Shown here: one piece after another, positions 50,422-64,000 of the stretch | How the letters are laid out: the number at the start of each line of letters is the position of its first letter | How positions within the stretch are numbered: position 1 is the stretch's first letter | NCBI GenBank assembly: GCA_037379345.1 | Contig: CM074514.1 | Coordinates: forward strand, 31,062,001 to 31,126,000 | Origin: Perna viridis | Taxonomy: Eukaryota | Length of the DNA stretch: 64,000 nt | Direction: 5' to 3' | Notes under the pieces: generated by a model | Told to the model about the DNA's origin: nothing | The model's database searches: none | The model's input: the letters and a program-made list of their open reading frames with translations, nothing else | Program-made: the position numbers and the translations under genes

Positions 50422-51023
50422 TCACGAATTATATTGCATGATGTCTTCATGGCTTATCGAATCAATCTCGAATTTTAAATCACACCATTTTTCACAGTTA
50501 AGAAAACCGTTTAACTGTTTGTCAAATATTTTGATGTAGTCTTGTGACAGGACAACAAATTTACATTCTTGGTAAATCATAATTGTTCCCCAATTGTGAC
50601 CGCAAACAAGACCATAAGCCTTTCCTTGCTTCAGGAATCCATCAAATTTCTTCTGTTTCTTTTGTGGCAAATCGACTTCTTTGACTTTATTAAGCATAAG
50701 CTTATCGCAAACAAGATACATTTTGTTGTTGACATGCCTCATAACACTGCCATCAGCTATTATTTCGGAACACTTCTTGCAATAGATGACGAATAACCCT
50801 CTTTGTTTATCACTCATTTTTGATTTTGCCATACTTCTTTCCATATCCTCCATTTGATAAACATTCTTTTCAGCTAAAGCTAGATCTCTACTCAAATCGG
50901 AGCTGCTGAGTTCATCAACAGCTCTGAGCATAAAGTACTGTCGCTCTATATTTTTTGACTCTGTCTCAAATTCTTGCCGTGTTCCCACTATAACTTCTCT
51001 GCCTTCCTGTTTTCGTATTCTTC
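50422..51023 (-). CDS. RLR last exon: end of motif VI, pincer, C-terminal RNA-binding domain
   Basis: GRIRK..ESKNIERQYFM..YCKKC..CGHNWG..KW; stop TGA. Confidence 0.92.
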
Positions 51024-54000
51024 CTAAAATTGAGAGTTCGCGATATCACATACAATAAATAAAATTGCTTTGTCAAAGAAGACAGTTTATACAATATATA
51101 ATCAATAATTATAAGTTACAGAATAGAAACTATGGGTAGTCGTATCTTCATTGTACAGTCGAGTAAAATTAAGGGTACCTTTGGAAAGCGATTTAAAATC
51201 GTTATTACGAAAATTAAAAAAAACATTTTCAAATTCTTTTATATTAGTACCTCAAAACGCCCGGTTTGATTTTGTAAAAATTTTACAATAATTTTTTACC
51301 ATTGTCTTTGAGCATCTGAATCGGAATTAGATGACAGAAGTTCTTTCATCATCATAAAACATGTCAATCAATTCATTTACAAGAATACACGATTACATTG
51401 CATCAAAAATATCCTACCAGAGAAGACCTTTGAAAGAGAGAAACAATTTAATTATTCCTGACCTCTCATTTGTAGACTACTGATTTCATCAGCACTAAAT
51501 CTGTATCTAATCATTACATTACATTGTGGTACATCAAGTCCTTCACTACCAACTGATGTGGCAACAATACACAAATGTTCTCCTCTACGGAATTTCTCCA
51601 GGACCTCCACCTGTTCATCTGCGGGACGTCCTACCAATAACATATGCACACTCCTTGAGACGTTTAGGTTCCCCATTTTAGCGTTCGTGCATCGTTTATC
51701 GTGCGTTTACACATCGTTTTGCGTTCGTTTAAACGCACGATGAACGCTCGATACAAGCGTTCATTTAAACGCACGAAGGGAGCGTTCGTTTAAATGCACA
51801 ATACGAGCGTTCGTCTATTTTTGTACTTGGATTATTTCCTCAATTCTACTGTTATTTTTTTTTTATGTACTATTATTAATTTATATATTTTCATTAATTC
51901 AATTTTCTATTTTCCCTTTCGTCATTATTTGTTAATATTATAATTTTTCATTTTTCGTCTATCGAGCGTTTAAACGTACGCTGTGAGCGTTCGTCTATCG
52001 TGCGTTTAAACGCACGATAGGAGCGTTTGTTTAAACACACGATAGAAGCGTTCGTTTATCGTGCGTTTAGTGAGCGTTTAGCATGCATTCAGGTATCGTG
52101 CATGCGGGAAACCTAAACGTCTCAAGGAGTGTAAACTGTTACTTTGATATACCTAAATTTGCTTTAAAACGTTTAAAAATTATGTTTTTTGCAGGAATTT
52201 TAAGCAGTAAACATTCCTCACAGGTGTGGGTGTGTGTACAACATGAACATGTATGTTGTAGTACAAAGTATGTAGATATACATGTACTGAAATGTTCATT
52301 CAAGGTTTAGTAACGAATACACAAATTATGTACTAAAATCATAACTTGAACTTGATTTTTCAAGTTTTTATATTCAATTGTCATGCTTTTAAGTAACAAT
52401 AGGAAACTACCTCCTTCATCCTTTGATTTGTGAGATCCTGTGAGGTAAGTTGACCGTAAGTAGTCAGGTAGTCTGTCTGCAAGTGCCATTGCAGTTGCTC
52501 TTGTCTTGACGAAAATCATAAATCTAGATTCACCCCTGTGCTTTTGGTGTTCACTTTCAAGTTTTCCAAGAACTGCCTGAATGTCCGGATTGGTTTCAAT
52601 ATTCCTTCCTATTTCTCGAATTTCAGCAAACACCTCTGTGGAGAACAAAAACAATGTATGATTACGATACTGATATTCCGCTCGGCAAATGTAATAAAAA
52701 ATCGCATATATTGTAAAAGCTATAATTATATAACGTTGAACTAGTCCAATGTAGATTTAGCATTAAAGGTAAACACGAGGAATGTATCCTTTAATTTGTG
52801 CCATTTATCTATATGTTAAGGGCCATTTTTTTCCTAATATTCAAAATTTGGATTTCCACCATTACGACAGTAATTTTAAACGTTATTAAACTGTCATTTG
52901 ATTTTATGAAGATTGTTTTTATTGTTAAAGACTAAAAAAGGCAGAAGAAAGAACGTGCATGGAAGAGGAAAGCGGCAATAAAAATGGTATTGAAAAAGAC
53001 TATGCTTATACGATTATTTGTTCCGAGTTATTTAAAATAGATAAAGACATAATTGAAAGGATGGATTCTCTACACATGTCCAGGACCTTAAAAATGTTAG
53101 TGTTTGCTGTACCAGACATAATTATTGAAATTATATTCGTAGACTTTGGCGTTAGTGTTAATATTTATATAAGTGTATCTGAAAATAAGTGCGCAGAAAC
53201 TGTGCGCTTTCACATGACACATATAGGTATCCATGTGATAACTTTTAACACTTGAGCTATATAGATTATTAACTGATAAATGTACCTAGTTGAGAGGGAC
53301 ATGTATCTAAGGACATGATTTATTTAAATAAATGTTGATTTGACAGACAGTTTCGATATGGATGTCGATAATCGAATTTCGACTTTAAAATGTAGAAACT
53401 GGGAAAGGACAACTGGTACTTCGTAGTTTAATTATACAGTTTGTCGAAGAGTTCTGTGTCCATTCATCTAGGTGTTCCAAGTAAACATATGTAAATACAT
53501 GTAGTTAACATTGACATATTTGATTTGCTTTTAAATTCGACATTCTGATTATGTTCGACATCGAATTTGAACAATATATTACGCAAAGTGGCGCACTGCT
53601 ACATTACATTTACATTACTGCCCGTTATGCCAGCTGGCATTTAAGGCAGCAACAAAGAATCTCAATTGGTGACGGTCTTTGGCCATCCTTTCAATAGTTC
53701 CCCAGGTTTGGTCTCGACCCTTCATCTCAGCTTCTATGGTTCTCCTCCACGTTGTTTAAGGTCTCCCTCTCTTTCTTTTGCCGCCGTCTGGTGTCCAGTG
53801 TAAGGCTACTTTGGTATGAGGTATTGTCTTTTCTGATGACATGGCCTATCCACTTCCATCTTCTTCTCAGCAGTATTGTTGCCATGTCAAGTTGGTTCCA
53901 TTTTCTCAATACTTTTTCATGACTGATGGTATTGGACCAGAATATTTGCAATATACGTCTTAAACACTTGGTATGAAATGTTGACAGTTTTGTTTGATTT

Positions 54001-57000
54001 TGCTCTGTCATTTTCCAGCACTCAGAGCCGTACAAGAGTGTTGAAAGTATGCAACTCTGGTATAGTTTAAGCTTTGTTGTTTTGCTATACTGGCAGGACT
54101 TCCATACATTATTGAGTGCGATAAAGATCCTATTTTTGATGTATTTGCTGGCGCCTACGTCAGCGCACACTGTGCTACCAAGGTAGGTGAAGGTGCTTGT
54201 TGTCGGAAGATTTTTGCCATTAATTTCAATTGGTGCGGTGTTCGACATGTTTAAGGTCATAACTTCTGCTTTAGTTTCACTGATGTTGAGACCTATATGT
54301 TTAGCGAAATTTGAGAGGCGATTGGTCTTATCCTGTAAGTGTTGATGTGTATGTGGTAACAAGGCTATGTCGTCAGCAAAGTCAACATCTTCTAGAACTG
54401 TGTTTATTTCCCATCTCCTTGCACCTTCGGTAGTTTTCCTCATCACCCAGTCGATTACTAAGTTAAAAAGGATGAAAGACATAACACACCCTTGTCTTAC
54501 TCCTGTCTCTACTTGGAACTTGATGTTACTGTTCTGTATGCTACTGTTCTGTATGTTACTGTTCTGTATGTTACTGTTCTGTATGCTACTGTTCTGTATG
54601 CTGCATGTAAAGTTATGGAAAAAGCTCTTGATTATATCTGTTATTTTGCTTTGAATACCATAAGATCTTAATATATTCCATAGACTCTCTCTGTGTATGC
54701 TGTCAACAGCTTTCTGAAAGTCAACAAAATTGATGTATATCTCTCGTTGCCGCTCAGTGCAATGCTCGACGATATTACGTATAACAAATATCTGATAAGT
54801 GCAACCTCTACCTTTCTGAATCCCGTTTGCTCTTTTCTCAGGCATTCATCTATAGCTGTTGAAATTCTGTTTATTATAATCTCGGCTAATTAAGATCTCA
54901 CTAGGTATAGAGTTATCACAGGAACCAAGGTTATAACAGTAATCGAAAGAATGTAATCCAGGGACAAAGACCAGACATGGAAAACAAACATACACAACAA
55001 AGAGCATAAAGTAACTAAACTCATTCATACAAAGTAACAAAAGCATATGAGCAACTCGGACTTCACTAAAAACCGGGAGCATGGACCAGGTGCACCTGTA
55101 GGTAAGCGTTCTCTGCTTTTCTTGAAACACTCGCAGAGTTGCTCATAAAAAGTCATAGAAGTATGATCCCTCGCCAGATATTGCAGTTGTTGAGTGCCCC
55201 TTTCTTTGGTATCTTGATAATGCTACCTTTAGACCAGTCATCGGGTAATTTGTTGTTGTTTCAAGCATGTTCGAATAAAGGTAGAAGTATAGATGCGACA
55301 ATAGTTGGATCTGCCTTGAACATGTAAGCAGTCAGATTGTCTAGACCTTGCGCTTTTCCGTTTTTCAGAGATTCTATGGCTGTAACTATTTCATCAACTG
55401 TTGGTAGATTTGTGTTCACTTCCGGGTAATTCAGGTCAATTATTTGATTAGTTGACGGTCTGTTAAGTATTTTCTGAAAGTATTCTGCCCATCGTGCTTC
55501 TTGTTCACGCTCTGAAGTAAGAAGTTTACCATTTTTTTTCACTGGGATGTTGGTATTGCCTCTGTATTTTCCACTGATGAGCTATGTTAACTTGTGAAGT
55601 TGACCTTGTTCTTCCTTTTCAGCAGCTTCTTCTGCTTGTCTAGCAATATCCTTTATGTATGCACTGCTACCATGCAACATAAATTTGGGTGTGTGTTTTC
55701 ATGTCGTTCGTAATCAGAAAGGTCATTTTACAAATAATTCGAAAAGTTCAATGTTTAACTTAACTATTTACATACTTTTGAATTCGATCCCCGTTCTTTT
55801 CTTTTATTTCATATTTTTGCAAATTGATTATTCGAGGCGTAAATATTCAAACGATTGACTTAAATTGATTCAGTACACGAGTATTTTGATAGAAGCACTT
55901 GCACTTTAGAAATATCATCTTGGGGACACTATACATATGAACTGAGAAAGTATCACTATCATATATGCAACTTCATCCAGGAGCTTAAAAATAGCATTTT
56001 ACTTCGGTATACTGTTAATGATTTTTTGTGAAGTGATTGAGTACCAAACCAGTCACAGAAAACATTCGCTAGTTACGATGAGTAAATCCATTCGTTTTAA
56101 AGATAGGGATGGCAAAACAATCAACAGAATCATGGAATGCTTTGTTCCATAACAAAATTAAAATTTGCGAAATGAGCAACAATCAAGCATTGTTTTTTAC
56201 CTTTCAATTTATTAACAATATCCCTCTCCTCATCTGTGTTTGCCATTTGGCTATTGAACGACTCATCCGCGTATCCCTGTCTTATCACATCCCTGACCTG
56301 GTCAATTTCAAGGAGTGAGTTAACTTCTAAACATTCTGTGTACAACTAAAATAGATCACATATACTTTGATTAAGTGTTGACAAATGAAATATTATGATC
56401 CTTTCTTGTTGATCACTTACTAAATGCATCGAGACATCAGAACCGTTTGAAATGATTAAAACGTGAACAATGAAATCATAAACAATCAACATACACATTC
56501 ATATTGTACACGCCATACTTGTCAAAGTAATACAAAAAAAAAGTAGACAGTGTAATTTCCAGGTGAAAAAGTTAATGCTTATATTTTATAAAATCATTAA
56601 ATGTTCGTTTTGTGTATTACGCCCGGATGATGCACCTTATGCTTGTACACTTAGTTTTAAATGCATGCACGCACATTTTACAAAGAGAAGGTCTATTGTA
56701 TTCATTTCAAATGGTCATCAGATCGTTACATGTTAGTCGCAAAAAGTATACGTTTCAAAAAGTATATAAAATGTTGAAATGGATTAGATAAAACCATGAC
56801 GATGCAAAGAGTATCCAATTTGAAAAAAAAAAAACTTATTCGAAGTTCGAAAGTTACATGCAAGTTAAACATATGGACGGGCGGACATTTGAAGAAATTA
56901 GAAATTCAGTATTTTACCTCTAAATGTCGCATGCATGCCAGAAGTAATCTTGGGACTGCAGGGTCAAGATGTAATACATATTCAACTTTGTCTTTGGTTT

Positions 57001-60000
57001 CAGCAATCCACTGAATGTATCGAACCTCAGTCCGCTGACGAGGCGGGTTTCCTAGGGCATTGTAGAGTTCTGAGTTTGTACCAAGATGATCAATAAGAAA
57101 ATTTGAAACTACAAAATTTGAATTGGTATAGGTTAATTTCCTAGATACATGTATAGAGCAAAACAGTATCTTCATTTTCCAGGAAAAAAACAACAAAATA
57201 TGATATGTTATAAGTTTAGTTTAATTGAATCGACGGCATTTCAATGCATTCATTTACCATCTCCAATTCGCAGTGAATTTTACTGAAGAAGAGATACCAA
57301 TTTCTTGCGTTGTTACAAATCAGCCAAAATAAGGTAAAAGATAAAATTACAGAATTAGCTTATAGTTATGAATAACTTATTATTGTTATAAACCACGAGT
57401 ACGTACATTTAAATTGTATTATATGCACCAATCAGAACATATGCAATGGAACAAACTTACATTTGTTAAAAAAACTTTTTCCTAGCCTTACAAATTAGGA
57501 TTTTACTGCTCTTTGATATTTAAAGTTGTTCAAAATCAAAATTGTTAATAGTTCTAGAAAGCCTGTTAGCAATCCCTAATTTAATAACATGCACCTTTTG
57601 ACCTCTAAATTGATTAGGATCTAAATTTATAAACAGTGCACAATGGGAATATGTCATAGAGGACGAAGTTCTCATAAACGTATTTAATGCAAAACAAAAT
57701 CAAAGCTAGGAAGCACTGATAGCCTGATTTCAGTTTAGCAGGAAGTCGCGTCTTTCGGAGCTTCTCATAGTTCAGTACTTTCGTATCTTTTTCACTAAAA
57801 GACGTTTAGGGTCTTACAGGTCTTCAATAATTATGTAAATTCATATTCTTTTTATTTTTCGTTTCATGCCATTGAAGTAGGCCTTTCCGGGTTAAGCAAG
57901 AAAGGCCAAAGTGCGAACAGTAAATAATATCCGCGCGGTTGGGGTTGTGGTTGGGAGGGGCACTCTAATACTCTAATACTTCTTCAACAAGGAGTGTCGC
58001 TGGGATTCTGTAACCCCACCTTATCCATATATTTTGCATTTGGAAAAAAAATGTATTCATATAGTTTATCAGATAAAAAGAGACCTACTCCAATATATAT
58101 ATGGAATGTCACCTGAATAATCGTACACTAGGACACACAATAACAATATTCATCATTCATTTATTCTACAAATACGAACAGAATTACAACAGGTAATAGG
58201 ATAAGGATAATTCTGAATATCCATATATTTCATAATGTAAACTTTATTTACTTACCAAATTCATATAACTTTGTTCGTTTTTCCCCACCTATTCACCTAT
58301 TCACAAGCTGGAAAATTGGCACATATTCTAGCGGCACGTCATATCACCTTATAAATAGGAAGTGTTCCCCGAGGAAATACCGATCTCACCAATACGCGAC
58401 AAGAAAAATAAAACGAATAAAGCCAAGGAAAAATGGGCGACAATTCACATTTAAAAGTTTCCTCCCCTTCCAGAATCCTAGCGATACATAACCGAACAAA
58501 AGATATGTATGATATTATAACTCGATTTTCCGTCTAATAAATAAAACGCCCAGTGTGTAGAGGCATTAAATTAATTTTGATTAAAATTTCAATGAAATCG
58601 AAATGAGTTAAGCCTTAGTTTGAGCATAATTTCTACTGTAATTGTCATTCCACGTAACAAAACAGACGATCCCTATCGGTACGTCCATTCGTTCGTCAAG
58701 TTAGTGGAAATATCTATTAAGCCATGTCGAAGCCTGTGCATACAGGAAACTTTTAGTCCCCATAAGGTAATGTTAATTCATTCAATAATGAACATGATTT
58801 ATATATACGATGTGCATACATAGTTATAACATAGTCTAAATTACCCTTTCGACAGTTGAGTTTGTGTTCAACATATTCCATAGCTTTGAAAAGTATTTGC
58901 TTCACAGGGTCTTCCCGTCGAGCAGTTGACAAAATATTTTCTAGAAAAGTAACATGAAATGCAAGAGAAAGATAGTTTTTGTTATTACATGTATCTATTT
59001 TAGTGGACATTTACCTGTAAAAATAGAACAAAAACGTCAAAATAATTTCAATTTGTCCGTGGCTTGCCATATTACTACTGTTAGATAGAAATCGCCGAAC
59101 TGTTTTCTTTCATACAATGTAGACCAAAGGACGGATATTAGTAAAAAAAATGTGTTATGTAAAACTACATGTACTCTGGGAAAATATTTCTATATAATCT
59201 TAAATATCTTTCCGTATTGAAATTTTGTGGACAATGTATTTTTACCGCCATGAGCGAATCAGTGAAATACGACGCTTTATTGCATGCTTACTTTTGGTTG
59301 CCAGTTTATTGGAAATGTACATATTTTTGCTGTCTTTTTTTCATGATCAGTATATAATGACGAAAATAAATATATAAGGTGTTTAGCATATAGCAACTTT
59401 CAACATTAGGCAAATTTAAACTCTTTCGGATGTGTTTGAAAACCAAAAACAAAGCGCGAAAATAAGTACCTGCAAAAGTAAGTAAATTACATTATCCTGA
59501 CCTTTGTCTGGTATTGAGCTGTACTCCAGTAGCTCTTGTTTGTGTTTTTTCACCACAGACAATTGACCTACATCTAAATTAGTCATTACAATTCTTAAGT
59601 GATCTTTAGCAGAAGCTACGTCCTTAGCTTTGTTAGATCCAGGTGAGGCAGTCAGACCTAAAATCTGTACATTATAACCGTATATGTACATTGTAAATAA
59701 GGGAAAACAGAAACTCACATTTAAACGTACATATAGATTTGGCTACTTGAGCACTTGATATACCACATCCACAGAAAAAGGAAATTACAAATTTTGTGTT
59801 TGGTGTTCTCATATAAGCATTTAGCATACATGTACTACACAGACTACAGAGGCAGCAATACTTATGACTGAAAACATCAGGATGAAATATCTGATGAAAA
59901 ATCATGATTACTCATCGTTTTAGAAGAAACTAGGTATTATTCAAACAAGGACTGATATCTAAAAAAGAATTTGGTAACAGACCTTGTAAGACGCATTTCC

Positions 60001-63000
60001 TCATATCCTTGATTCAGGCGTCTGTTACGCAGATATTATGGCGTTCATGGAGATCAGAGTTGGTAGTACTTGCACTAGCGCAGCGAATCAATTTTGAAAT
60101 GTAAACACCATATGCAGGAGATGAAGGAATATTGCTGCACAGGTAAGGGAAATTTATATTAAATTTATATTAAAATTAAAGTCTTCGTCTCTTTTATCAT
60201 AAATCTTAGTGCTGAGATGACCACTGTTGTCATATTAGAGATGTATGTAAAAAAAAAGATGCAGAACATGCTGTTTCCTAAGTCTCCTTTATTTTGAGTT
60301 CTGGTGGATATATTGACGGTAACCATTTACCAAAAGAAGAGTGTTGATGGACAATACATCATCAATCGGCTAGTAGAGGAGCACAGTTTGTGCCCATTGG
60401 AATGCCAACTTGTTGAAAAATAGCTCCTCCAAATGTGACAAATATGTTATCAGTGAGTAAATCAAGCATATCGCGAACCTGCTTTTCTGTGTAGCACACA
60501 TTGTGATGTTTTAGAAAAAAATATGTGGATTTGTAACCGAGAACAACATAATTTTTTGAAACAGCAAAAGATTAACGTATGAGTCCTTGCAAACGATATC
60601 TCAACTTATCATGTGATAAGGTAGTGTAAAGAGTTGAGGTCAAAAGTTTGGAGAGAACTTATTTCCGAAAAACTACGGGATTTTTGGTTTTGAAATAAAT
60701 CTTTAGAATTTCTAAGTATCCACATATGATTAATGCCACTACAAGAGTAGGTGGTATTGCAATAAGCTTGCTTTGATCAATCCTTCGCTGCCGACAATAT
60801 CTTTGTAAGATGAATTGACATCTCCTTTGTGGAGCAAGATGAAGATCCTGCAATATACCTTTCTTTGTATGGGTTCTTAAGAAGTTTGGAAATCCAATAC
60901 AAGTAAGGTAAGTCCTCACATTTTGTTTTGATGTTACCTGAAATGTTACTATCAATGCCAAATTCATTAATAAGGCTACTGAGGTTATGGGCTTTACAAA
61001 CAAATACAATGCTGTTCGAAGCTTTGTCCGCAGGAACGATAACATATTTCTCGTGTGGTGAGGAAAAGCATTCAAGTGCCTCACGATCGTTGAATACGGA
61101 CTTGGGTCTTTTAAGAACATATCTAATGTTTTAGTCAGAAGTTAACCTTTTCTATCGACACTCCCACGTGTCTTTTTAAGCAGGTGTAAAATGTGTCGTT
61201 TGGATAAGTAAACAAATATATATGACTTCATAACCGGTACCATTGAAGATTGGTTTGATTATGAATTACCAGGTTATTAATTATAAAACAATTTACTATA
61301 GAGAGAAACCGAATCGAGAACATGATAATCCCATTGGCAATGAACCTATTCAAAATGCCAGTTGGCTGTATGACGCATATAAAATGTCGGTTTCGGCCAC
61401 AAATATCGGCTAAGCATTGAAAGACATGATCACGGTAACAAATTAACATTGAAATGTCAGTAACAAAGAATTAAATTTGTTCCAGAGGACCGTGATTTTT
61501 TAATATTTTGTAAGAACTACCTTGGTGACCTGACGTCATGACATGAAGCCGTTGATTTATTTATTTGTAAATGTTGTTTAATTTTCGTTTCTTAATTATA
61601 AATGTTACTTCATATTATACATGCAATTATATACTAATATTATTGTTGAAAGAGTTGAAATAATAGTACCGCTATTGTTAATAAATAATTTTAGGAGGTT
61701 ATTGGAAGAGCCAAATATTTCGTTTTCCTAAGGAGCGCCTCACTGACAAAATAACTCTTTTGTCCATGATTCCTGGTGTAATGTATGCTTATTTTAACAT
61801 AGGTAGGCATGGTGACTCTCAGTAAAAAATAATGACAAATATAGTGCTTACCCATATTAAAATAAGCATGAAGCCCGGCATCAAGGACTTATTTCTTCAG
61901 TAACACGTGTATCAGGAATAACAATGAAACAATGAGTTAGAAATGCACACTTTACACAATGTTCTATTACTGTAAAAGTATACACTACCTGTGGTAATTT
62001 GCTCATTTTTTCTTCGTACTTTGCTCTCCTGTAGTGAACCATGATTTCATTGTAAGGGTCATGGTCGTGGCAATGGTGACACTCATCAAATACCAAAAGG
62101 CTGAAATCTCCAATAGACACCTTAACTTCAGCTGTGTCCATCAAATGATTGCATAGCGACATCGGAGTTAAGAAAATTATGCTTGACCGTTCGATTGCAT
62201 TTGCAAATTCACTGCTATCATCCTCATCTGCTTTCCACAGCTTTATCCTTCCCTAAAATATATATAGTTTATTCGTTATAACATTTTCTTTATACACAAA
62301 TTGAGTTAATATGATATATGTAATCATGTAAATGTAGATTCCTACACAACGAATTCCCGAGAACTTTATTTTTTCGGAGTAAACCTCTGCGTCTCCTTAG
62401 ACCAAAATAGCACTATACAAACAGACTAATACCCATGCATATAACTATTTACCCCATCTGGATGTTTCTGTGTGTTCTAAATGATTAGATAAAACCTAAT
62501 ACTTCTAGATATCCATAACATTAAGAATATCTGAATTAATCTACTTTCAAAAGATTGTGTATTTAAAGAAGTAGTTAATTAATGGATTTTATGCTAACGC
62601 ATGATCTTGTTTTTCTTTTTCAAAACATTGGGACATGTTTTGTTATTGACAAAATACATTTGAAAACATACTTACTACATTGTTGTTGTCGGTAAACCTC
62701 ACTGTACAGAATAATCGTGTCAATTTGCATATTTCGTTTAAAGAAGTTTTGGGTTGCCATATACGGAATATTTTAAAACCATTTATTTTCTTACCCAGTA
62801 AAGAGTAATCAAGGGAACCAAGATTCCGACGGAAATCAAAAGAACGCAATCCAGGGACAAATATCAGACGGGAAAAACAGACACACACAACAAAGAACAC
62901 AAGACAACCATTAACAAACTTATACGGACAAAGAAACAAAAGTATATGTGCAATTTGGACTCCACGTAAACTGGGAACATTGACCAGGTGCACAAATAGG

Positions 63001-63546
63001 GTATAAATGTCCTCTGCTTTTCTAGAAACACCTGCTGAGTAGCTCATAAAATGTTGTCTGGGATAAACGAAAGGAAAACGGAAAACTTTGACACATTGAA
63101 CAAATCATTTCTCATTGTGCCAATGGGTACACCGTTAAATGATGACAACCATAAAACTTAGAAAAAAATATATTTATCAATAGACTTATTCGGCCTATGC
63201 AATCCATATTCTACATTTTACAAAAATTTCTCTTCATTCTAGAAATCAAACCATATTATACCCTTTTTTACTTTATTCTCTTTTGACTTTTTGAAATGGT
63301 ACTAGAAAATTGCGCCGAAATAATGAAAGGTCACAAAAACGGAAGTAACCTTCCATGGATCTTTCTGGTTTAAAACAAAAGGGGGTGAGAAAAAAATTCC
63401 AAGTAAGGTTTACGCATGTTGATGCTATTATAAAAATATAGTAATTAAAAGAACCTGCATCTGTAGGTCTACAAATGTATCACATGCTCTTTTGTACTGT
63501 TGTCCAAGTAGCACATTGGTTTTGTTTATAAAGACAACTTTGCCTG
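50422..63546 (-). CDS. Spliced gene, 5'-partial: RIG-I-like receptor (DDX58/IFIH1/DHX58 family) RNA helicase. join complement(63455-63546, 61989-62252, 59502-59664, 58845-58940, 56918-57108, 56201-56345, 52411-52635, 51463-51630, 50422-51023)
   Basis: Continuous frame of ~648 codons. Motifs: Ia KVVF..LLGQQ, II DECHH, IIa PYNEIM, III GLTASPG, IV IFVKTR, V ATSVGSEGLDVPQCN, VI QMRGRIR, then pincer and CTD (CKKC...CGHNWG...KW), ending in TGA at 50422-50424. Orthology to a particular vertebrate RLR and presence of CARDs cannot be judged here. Confidence 0.93.
51463..51630 (-). CDS. RLR exon, motif V (EQVEVLEKFRRGE..ATSVGSEGLDVPQCN..QMR)
   Basis: Helicase C-terminal motifs; weak acceptor ttattggtag, GTCAGG donor; phase 1-1. 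Confidence 0.9.
51649..52131. mobile_element. MITE with ~25-bp TIRs (cactccttgagacgtttaggtt) and internal gcgttcgtttaaacgcacga repeats
   Basis: TIRs at 51649-51673 and 52106-52131; flanks CA and TA (possibly a decayed TA TSD). Confidence 0.88.
52411..52635 (-). CDS. RLR exon, motif IV (NPDI..SRFMIFVKTR..LTGS)
   Basis: ctccacag acceptor, GTAGTT donor; phase 1-1. Confidence 0.9.
54524..54602. repeat. 15-bp tandem repeat (about 5 copies) inside the RTE RT
   Basis: Repeated tactgttctgtatg(c/t), translated as NSSIQ/NSNIQ in ORF 53727-54845. Confidence 0.95.
54909..55150 (-). repeat. Dispersed repeat family A nested in the RTE ORF
   Basis: Interrupts the RTE coding sequence at the WRGI-I-LL / IPS motif. 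Confidence 0.9.
56201..56345 (-). CDS. RLR exon, Hel2i (LYTECLEVNSLLEID...)
   Basis: ctattttag acceptor, GTAAAA donor; phase 0-1. Confidence 0.85.
56918..57108 (-). CDS. RLR exon, Hel2i (..YIQWI..CMRHLE)
   Basis: aattttgtag acceptor, GTAAAA donor; phase 1-0; Y-x-Q-W and HL motifs of RLR Hel2i. Confidence 0.85.
57955..58371. mobile_element. Possible MITE with G-rich / C-rich termini
   Basis: ggggcactc ... ggaagtgttcccc imperfect inverted ends. Confidence 0.4.
58845..58940 (-). CDS. RLR exon, start of Hel2i (ENILSTARREDPVKQILFKAMEYVEHKLNCRK)
   Basis: acttttctag acceptor, GTAATT donor; phase 1-1; the DP..I...M pattern fits the start of Hel2i. Confidence 0.8.
59502..59664 (-). CDS. RLR exon, motif III (ILGLTASPG)
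   Basis: Joins the preceding LPQ to give LPQILGLTASPG, an RLR/Dicer signature; phase 0-1. Confidence 0.92.
59900..61200 (-). mobile_element. Decayed Penelope-like element (PLE) reverse transcriptase in RLR intron
   Basis: Manual translation across frameshifts gives KYVIVPADKASNSIVFVCK, LPYLYWISKLLKNPYKERYIAGS, GINHMWILRNSKDL, DNIFVTFGGAIFQQVGIPMGTNCAPLLAD, IDDVLSIN and NFPYLCSNIPSSPAYGVYIS. These are PLE-type RT motifs with deletions and stops. Confidence 0.85.
61989..62252 (-). CDS. RLR exon, helicase motifs IIFLTP, DECHH and PYNEIM
   Basis: 88 codons, phase 0-0; Walker B DECH. Confidence 0.92.
62802..63050 (-). repeat. Dispersed repeat family A in RLR intron
   Basis: agagtaatcaagggaaccaag...gaccaggtgcac...ctctgcttttctagaaacacctgctgagtagctcata. 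Confidence 0.88.
63455..63546 (-). CDS. RLR exon, motif Ia (GKVVFINKTNVLLGQQYKRACDTFVDLQMQ)
   Basis: ttttttcag acceptor (a CAGCAG NAGNAG), GTTCTT donor; phase 1-0. Confidence 0.8.
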
Positions 63547-63739
63547 CTGAAAAAATGAACAATTATTATTAAAAACGAAGATAAATTTGTAGGTCTCGAG
63601 GTGCTCCTAACCCAGTACAATACGATTTCCTAAGTGTAATTTGAATTCTAAACGCACAGTTAGATTGCGAACACAAGCTGTTCACTTGTCATATGCAACT
63701 TGAAGCTTTCAACGAGCTAAATTCGAATCTGCAATGAGT

Positions 63740-64000
63740 ATTGCGTATTCAGAACGATTTTTAACAAACGAAGAACGAACACAAAAGCGAACATGGAACG
63801 AGCCCTAACGTTCAATATACGTAACGCTAACGATCTAAACGCATTGATACCAATGATACGGACAATTTACGAAAAGAACCAACAAATAGCGAATACACAT
63901 TGAATCCGTTTAATTAACAATTGTATAAAAAATGCATGAAAAACGTAAGTTATTTTGAAAAAAAAAACGAATCAATATAAAAGGCATGAAACACCATGAT
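63740..64000 (+). repeat. Second copy of the left-arm sequence of the 36100-38330 element
   Basis: acgaagaacgaacacaaaagcgaacatggaacgagccc...cgctaacgatc aligns with 36235-36460. Confidence 0.75.

Follow-up and report, generated by a model that had tools for sequence, protein, structure and literature searches.

RIG-I-like receptors (RLRs) are understood as CARD-signalling sensors, and they cluster on dsRNA; in RIG-I's C-terminal domain (CTD), the role of H830 is the exclusion of cap1 RNA. RNase L and Csm6 are activated by second messengers. A design in which one protein is both sensor and nuclease is known among prokaryotic HEPN defence effectors, while in OAS/RNase L it is divided between two proteins.

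Several described systems resemble parts of the gene reported here. The Ig-type (L4) RLRs of lophotrochozoans share its Ig domain and its occurrence in tandem arrays (Yao et al. 2022, PMC8998645), although in the text of that paper HEPN, DZIP3 and zinc gave 0 matches. Passages of Kaur 2021 (PMC8195603) describe HEPN-Ig modules in oyster proteins, and the shuffling of bivalve HEPN modules onto many scaffolds, and its source data list one Lingula HEPN-TRADD-N-RLR among 10 RLR rows. This Lingula protein (XP_013399073.1, one table row) has an N-terminal HEPN on an RLR, as our gene does, but is arranged as HEPN, coiled coil, TRADD-N, helicase and CTD, with no Ig. A DZIP3-type HEPN also occupies the effector slot of cnidarian and bivalve NLRs, with Rx4H kept and RNase activity predicted according to the passages seen (PMC8260672, PMC9646362, PMC8662601), although there the sensor is NACHT-LRR instead of an RNA helicase. 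RNase L and Ire1 (KEN), together with HEPN effectors of prokaryotes (Csm6, for example), are likewise sensor-controlled HEPN-class RNases with Rx4-6H (PMC3710099); our gene differs from RNase L and Csm6 in joining sensor and predicted nuclease in one chain. In its searched passages, Anantharaman 2013 lists no RLR among DZIP3 fusions, and apart from the Lingula table row we found no description of either an HEPN-RLR or a Gly zinc site in the passages searched, which came mostly from outside the subscription journals. Automatic Pfam annotation already flags the HEPN domain in these RLRs.

The window analysed here is a 64,000-nucleotide stretch of the Perna viridis genome. It contains most of the helicase and the whole CTD of a minus-strand RLR gene which lacks a CARD and encodes an N-terminal HEPN domain, then Ig, helicase, pincer and CTD (Table 1); exons past the window end were traced by tblastn with a Mytilus homolog as query. 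The gene model has 13 coding exons and 1008 aa, with 0 internal stops and GT-AG at every internal junction, which bears out an earlier statement that the frame is otherwise intact. Helicase motifs I, II, III, IV, V and VI are all present, as is Hel2i, and the SF2 helicase with Hel2i, the pincer and the CTD are shared with vertebrate RIG-I, MDA5 and LGP2, from which the gene differs in lacking a CARD and carrying HEPN and Ig domains. Pfam DEAD/ResIII matches one exon of the window, RIG-I_C and Helicase_C match the 65%-identical P0002, and the nearest named proteins, at ~60% identity, are from Mytilus.

The exon structure is supported by homology and by assembled contigs from four sequencing runs. 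These runs (n=4, from 4 studies) were guessed to be RNA, none being recorded as such, and splicing was read from contig joints. In a single 1749-nt contig the exons for HEPN and Ig are spliced, via GT-AG introns, to a 5' exon and to two exons of the helicase (joints in 3/4 runs), and the joints 52411>51630 and 51463>51023 are also GT-AG introns; the five middle junctions are supported by homology. No contig among the runs extends from HEPN through to CTD, and full-length homologs show the same domain order. Minus-strand frames at 53727-55581 and 60659-61141 of the window sit in introns of the gene, and may be reverse transcriptase fragments of retroelements, which they resemble. A further minus-strand frame upstream of the gene (L013:2557-3378) carries a Walker A motif and appears to resemble the packaging ATPase of Polinton-type elements.

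Table 1. Exons of the RLR gene and altered CTD residues; plain numbers are window positions, and locus L012 lies beyond the window end
Feature	Position	Strand	Support or remark
Final coding exon, with the end of motif VI of the helicase, pincer, CTD, stop	50422..51023	-	joint 51463>51023 in 3/4 runs
Ser at K888 position (clade: Ser/Ala/Gly)	50545..50547	-	HMMER alignment
C-G-H: Cys matching C869 (the fourth) and a His invariant in the clade, candidate replacement ligand	50596..50604	-	ligand role predicted
Gly (codon GGT; residue 946 of the model) at the third zinc ligand, matching C864	50611..50613	-	29/29 clade vs 0/137 others
Met at H830 position	50719..50721	-	position variable inside and outside clade
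CKKC of the first zinc knuckle (matching C810/C813; residues 890/893 of the model)	50770..50781	-	invariant in 13/13 non-redundant clade CTDs
Exon, helicase motifs V-VI	51463..51630	-	joint 52411>51630 in 4/4 runs
Exon, Hel2 and motif IV	52411..52635	-	homology and run contigs
Exon, Hel2i	56201..56345	-	homology and GT/AG ends
Exon, Hel2i	56918..57108	-	homology and GT/AG ends
Exon, start of Hel2i	58845..58940	-	homology and GT/AG ends
Exon, helicase motif III	59502..59664	-	homology and GT/AG ends
Exon, helicase motif II (DECH)	61989..62252	-	homology; 5' end fits contigs' loose end by eye
Exon, helicase motif Ia	63455..63546	-	joint in 3/4 runs
Intron leaving window at its end	63547..64000	-	5' part of gene beyond, in locus L012
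Motif I exon	L012:2520-2678	-	beyond window
Immunoglobulin I-set exon	L012:4467-4721	-	Pfam I-set E=5e-09
42-nt linker exon	L012:5119-5160	-	joints in 3/4 runs
First coding exon: DZIP3-type HEPN (R125-N126-x3-H130), then long helix	L012:5510-6166	-	Pfam HEPN_DZIP3 E=3.1e-14
5' exon, no in-frame ATG	L012:8522-8842	-	contig joints

The last exon is an open frame that matches Pfam RIG-I_C-RD (E=1.9e-14), and all of the CTD motifs quoted in the preliminary description were found in it. An AlphaFold2 model of the CTD built from 97 sequences has a mean pLDDT of 92; its top structural match is RIG-I (4bpb), with Z 17.7 and an rmsd of 4.3 across 172 residues, a place shared with the CTDs of MDA5 and LGP2, and Z lies at 14-18 against RIG-I, MDA5, LGP2 and DRH CTDs. 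HMMER alignment to the human RIG-I CTD upheld the earlier by-eye placement of Gly at C864, Met at H830 and Ser at K888 with F853, K858, K861 and K907 kept, and in addition shows that C810, C813 and C869 are kept, that Gln stands in place of H847 and that two Lys lie opposite R811/K812. The kept residues are thus shared with the vertebrate receptors, while Gly at C864 and the replacement of K888, H847 and H830 set the gene apart from them. Judged by the sequence of its helicase and CTD it is an RLR, but one lacking both the CARD and the full set of four Cys.

The Gly at the third ligand is real and old, and extends across a whole clade of RLRs. It occurs in 29/29 CTDs of this clade, whose rows were chosen for their similarity and in part for carrying the Gly, the helicase-only tree recovering the 12 of them that it includes as a clade with support of 100/100; in the other RLRs tabulated (n=137, from the broad search) the same column holds 132 Cys, 5 His and 0 Gly. 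The underlying CTD alignment has 255 rows. Left out were L008, which is a broken fragment, and four rows whose CTDs are truncated, and 88 further rows, mostly vertebrate, stood outside the third-ligand tabulation. The Gly recurs in paralogues within this genome, three further ones having kept the third Cys. That the Gly might be an assembly error, a private variant or the product of pseudogene decay was suggested by the single base separating GGT from TGT, a point made in the preliminary description, and by the broken copies nearby. However, contigs from 4/4 runs (4 studies) cover the codon (50613-50611) with no alternative base, bearing in mind that contigs drop rare variants, and the gene has a spliced open frame with dN/dS of ~0.24 in the CTD against the neighbouring paralogue. 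Since the Gly is fixed throughout the clade, the single-base step from GGT to TGT has no bearing here, the run contigs and clade CTDs together refute error or polymorphism at this codon, and we regard the probability of any such explanation as vanishingly small; the proposal that this is a divergent but intact paralogue whose zinc site is changed stands.

Loss of the third ligand relative to every other tabulated RLR makes this CTD a natural test of how the fold holds its metal. RLRs hold zinc by four Cys (C810, C813, C864 and C869, as given in passages of PMC9557057), and here C864 is Gly. Among 13 non-redundant clade CTDs with a mean identity of 40%, only 8/123 positions are invariant, namely the three remaining Cys, the Gly, a His two residues past the last Cys, two Trp and the Lys at K907. 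The His is found in 29/29 clade CTDs compared to 22/137 others. In the CTD model the Gly and the His sit one at either end of the hairpin loop bearing the last Cys, so the His could reach the space vacated by the lost Cys, a reach that we read from the strand topology of the model and not from distances. We consider a Cys3His site, made up of the three Cys and the His after the last of them, to be the probable arrangement on the basis of this conservation and model. Taking the zinc site alone, zinc might otherwise be held by three Cys and water, or lost altogether, with the His kept for RNA contact or packing. Human RIG-I has a His in this column (H871) next to four Cys, near blunt-end RNA of which it is a predicted contact (PMC3045611, in the passages seen), and the 22/137 CTDs with His there are four-ligand CTDs, so the invariant His may be retained for another reason. 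However, the same passages report that H871E left RIG-I RNA binding unchanged, the residues flanking the His vary within the clade, and the invariance of all three remaining Cys in 13/13 argues for a metal still bound, so that we hold this alternative to be possible but rather doubtful.

The preliminary description had proposed the Cys of YLVCD or QECKF as spare ligands. These are present in 9/13 and 11/13 non-redundant clade members respectively, and the modelled strand topology places them away from the knuckles, which speaks against both; the QECKF Cys is a signature of the clade (25/29 vs 8/137). In one clade member, P0179 from Mytilus trossulus, Cys follows the Gly directly, so that the second knuckle gains a CxxC. 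The third zinc ligand, or a position close to it, is His and not Cys in five other RLR CTDs (P0021, P0026, P0040, P0051 and P0147). Two trees, in one of which the wrongly cut row P0170 is disregarded, show a sister group with a His ligand (P0051, P0026) and the helicase-only tree does not, for which reason we claim no Cys-to-His-to-Gly order of change.

The altered RNA-end residues carry less weight than had been supposed. In RIG-I, H830 bonds the first 2'-OH, and our gene does have Met at this position as claimed, but His occurs there in only 83/135 other RLR CTDs and the position is variable inside the clade, so that the argument from it is weak and its loss was dropped as a special feature. 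Lys at K888 is indeed lost clade-wide, always in favour of a small residue, but is present in only 65/135 other CTDs. Both residues are often replaced in other RLRs and neither change is therefore unusual on its own. The basic cluster that contacts the 5'-triphosphate in RIG-I is described in passages of PMC3045611 as K851, K858, K861, H847 and K888; 3/5 are kept here (H847 is Gln, K888 is Ser), fewer than in RIG-I proper, while K907 and the first knuckle's basic residues are retained. A weaker preference for 5'-triphosphate is plausible from this pattern of residues.

Upstream of the helicase, the first coding exon matches Pfam PF18738 (HEPN_DZIP3) with 53.4 bits against a cut-off of 27. Its RNxxxH motif is intact and follows the Rx4-6H pattern, with a polar residue after the Arg and an acidic residue upstream. 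HEPN domains of the Rx4-6H type are predicted metal-independent RNases (PMC3710099) and HEPN domains typically homodimerise (PMC12165695), according to passages of these papers. The motif is also kept in 194/202 DZIP3 HEPNs of pearl oyster (PMC9646362, in part); retention is therefore the family norm, and does not single out the HEPN-RLR fusion. The structure model of the domain is all-helical (pLDDT 89.6), with Csm6 (Z 7.5), AbiF (6.4) and LsoA (6.1) as best structural matches, tied with unrelated helical bundles, and Foldseek with this model returned nothing at E<=0.001. The first coding exons encode HEPN and Ig and no CARD at the N-terminus; of at least 9 CARD_2 matches in the genome none lies on the contig of the window, and the three CTDs with canonical CxxC have three of these matches 15-20 kb upstream. 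The earlier idea of a decoy overlooked an N-terminus outside the window in which a predicted RNase (HEPN) replaces the CARDs. When longer proteins were sought with the HEPN domain alone as query, 0/645 candidates matched, which is weak evidence. Two runs contain a second HEPN allele at L012:5981-6038, with five differences in 58 bases altering three residues. There are at least 63 HEPN_DZIP3 matches genome-wide, and most of the readable loci among the best 30 keep RNxxxH.

The CTD changes are, by sequence, the signature of one mussel RLR clade, many members of which have a predicted RNase in place of CARDs; all named members of the Gly clade are Mytilus. Among 120 homologs listed, 11 combine PF18738 with a helicase, and these come from M. 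coruscus, M. edulis, M. californianus and M. galloprovincialis; P0156 is a further case, as are P0164 and several partial or weak ones by custom profile, and two additional HEPN-RLR copies lie on the same contig as our gene. McoRLR6 (CAC5394238.1 = P0156) and McoRLR12 (CAC5409074.1 = P0005) both belong to the Gly clade and both have HEPN above the Pfam cut-off, the latter having been termed an Ig-type RLR in passages of PMC8998645. In the helicase-only tree the Gly clade is recovered at 100/100, and the HEPN-Ig members are nested inside it (96/95) among Death-type relatives. With Death-like N-termini on the earlier branches, this nesting suggests that the zinc change came first and that HEPN-Ig later took the signalling position. 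The region upstream of L004, a paralogue on C6, gave matches to neither HEPN nor Ig nor Death. Outside the clade, a predicted gene model of the freshwater mussel Potamilus (P0024) joins HEPN to a helicase from a different lineage and has a normal CxxC. A single origin of HEPN-RLR is rejected in the helicase-only tree (p-AU 6.6e-95), which together with the placement of the Potamilus protein suggests that the fusion arose separately.

In our judgement the chances are about even that this protein is a self-contained dsRNA sensor in which HEPN, as predicted from its sequence, would cut RNA on clustering and would not pass on a signal. The helicase and CTD would bind dsRNA ends or stems, and loading of several molecules on the RNA would bring HEPN domains together in the way that CARDs meet in RLR clustering; filament structures are among the structural matches of the CTD model. 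The HEPN active site might then cut viral and/or host RNA without MAVS. Within the CTD, zinc would be held by the three Cys and the His after the last Cys, and loss of K888 and H847 would weaken the 5'-triphosphate preference while blunt-end contacts stayed. The whole of this reading, a dsRNA-triggered one-chain RNase acting without MAVS, with HEPN in place of a death-fold domain, a Cys3His rewiring and an HEPN-RLR fusion that arose at least two times in bivalves, is put forward tentatively, and we rate it at somewhat below an even chance.

How HEPN sequence is conserved bears on whether the domain is a nuclease at all. HEPN is the fastest-diverging domain of the gene, with 35-40% identity between our gene and nine homologs and 35-42% among paralogues; dN/dS against the neighbouring paralogue is ~0.28, dS being near saturation. 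Such low identity could reflect a non-catalytic or weak adaptor, the dsRNA-bound protein using HEPN and Ig to recruit an unknown partner or to tune CARD-bearing RLRs in the manner of LGP2. The gene lacks a CARD, Ig domains are typical interaction modules, some animal HEPNs have been proposed as RNA receptors (PMC3710099, in the passages seen), and no report of RNase activity or of an RNase assay for a DZIP3-type HEPN was found in the literature passages searched. However, while the remainder of the domain drifts, the catalytic signature (R125, N126, H130, D72 and E119) is unchanged in 16/16 HEPN-RLR rows, and the second, independent fusion likewise retains it. An adaptor is thus in our view unlikely.

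It is also conceivable that HEPN is an active RNase controlled apart from RNA sensing, for example by proteolytic release, or that it serves RNA turnover instead of antiviral defence. The presence of HEPN modules on many bivalve scaffolds (PMC8195603, in part), and their abundance in this genome, would fit such a role. However, fusion to an intact RLR helicase-CTD has been maintained in the four named Mytilus species and in several paralogues, and the homolog McoRLR12 is expressed in the gut (passages of Yao 2022, PMC8998645), so that we think this improbable. Should the sensor-nuclease reading be correct, the exchange of signalling for an RNase would unite RNA sensing and destruction in one protein, with relevance to the antiviral defence of farmed bivalves. 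As the likely trigger (dsRNA) is known here, these RLRs offer a direct test of whether the expanded DZIP3-type HEPNs of invertebrates are active nucleases.

The neighbouring HEPN-Ig-RLR copy carries a frameshift within the HEPN exon, close to a run of A in the assembly (L019:9779-9815 on G000:C4, ~74 kb beyond the HEPN exon of our gene), and the letters of its CTD are present in contigs of all four runs. The frameshift is either an assembly error or the mark of a nuclease-less copy. Between our gene and this copy (L018-L020), dS is 1.1-1.9 for the exons of HEPN, Ig and motif I and drops to 0.2-0.6 elsewhere. This drop suggests recombination or gene conversion by which similar sensors keep different N-termini. 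At L005/L007 (G000:C4 31221870-31226349) and at L006 (C6) lie RLR copies from this clade that are broken by stops and frameshifts. Downstream of the CTD of the HEPN-Ig-RLR at C4:30.93 Mb lies a second set of Hel2i and Hel2 exons (L024:845-4559), a partial tandem duplicate.
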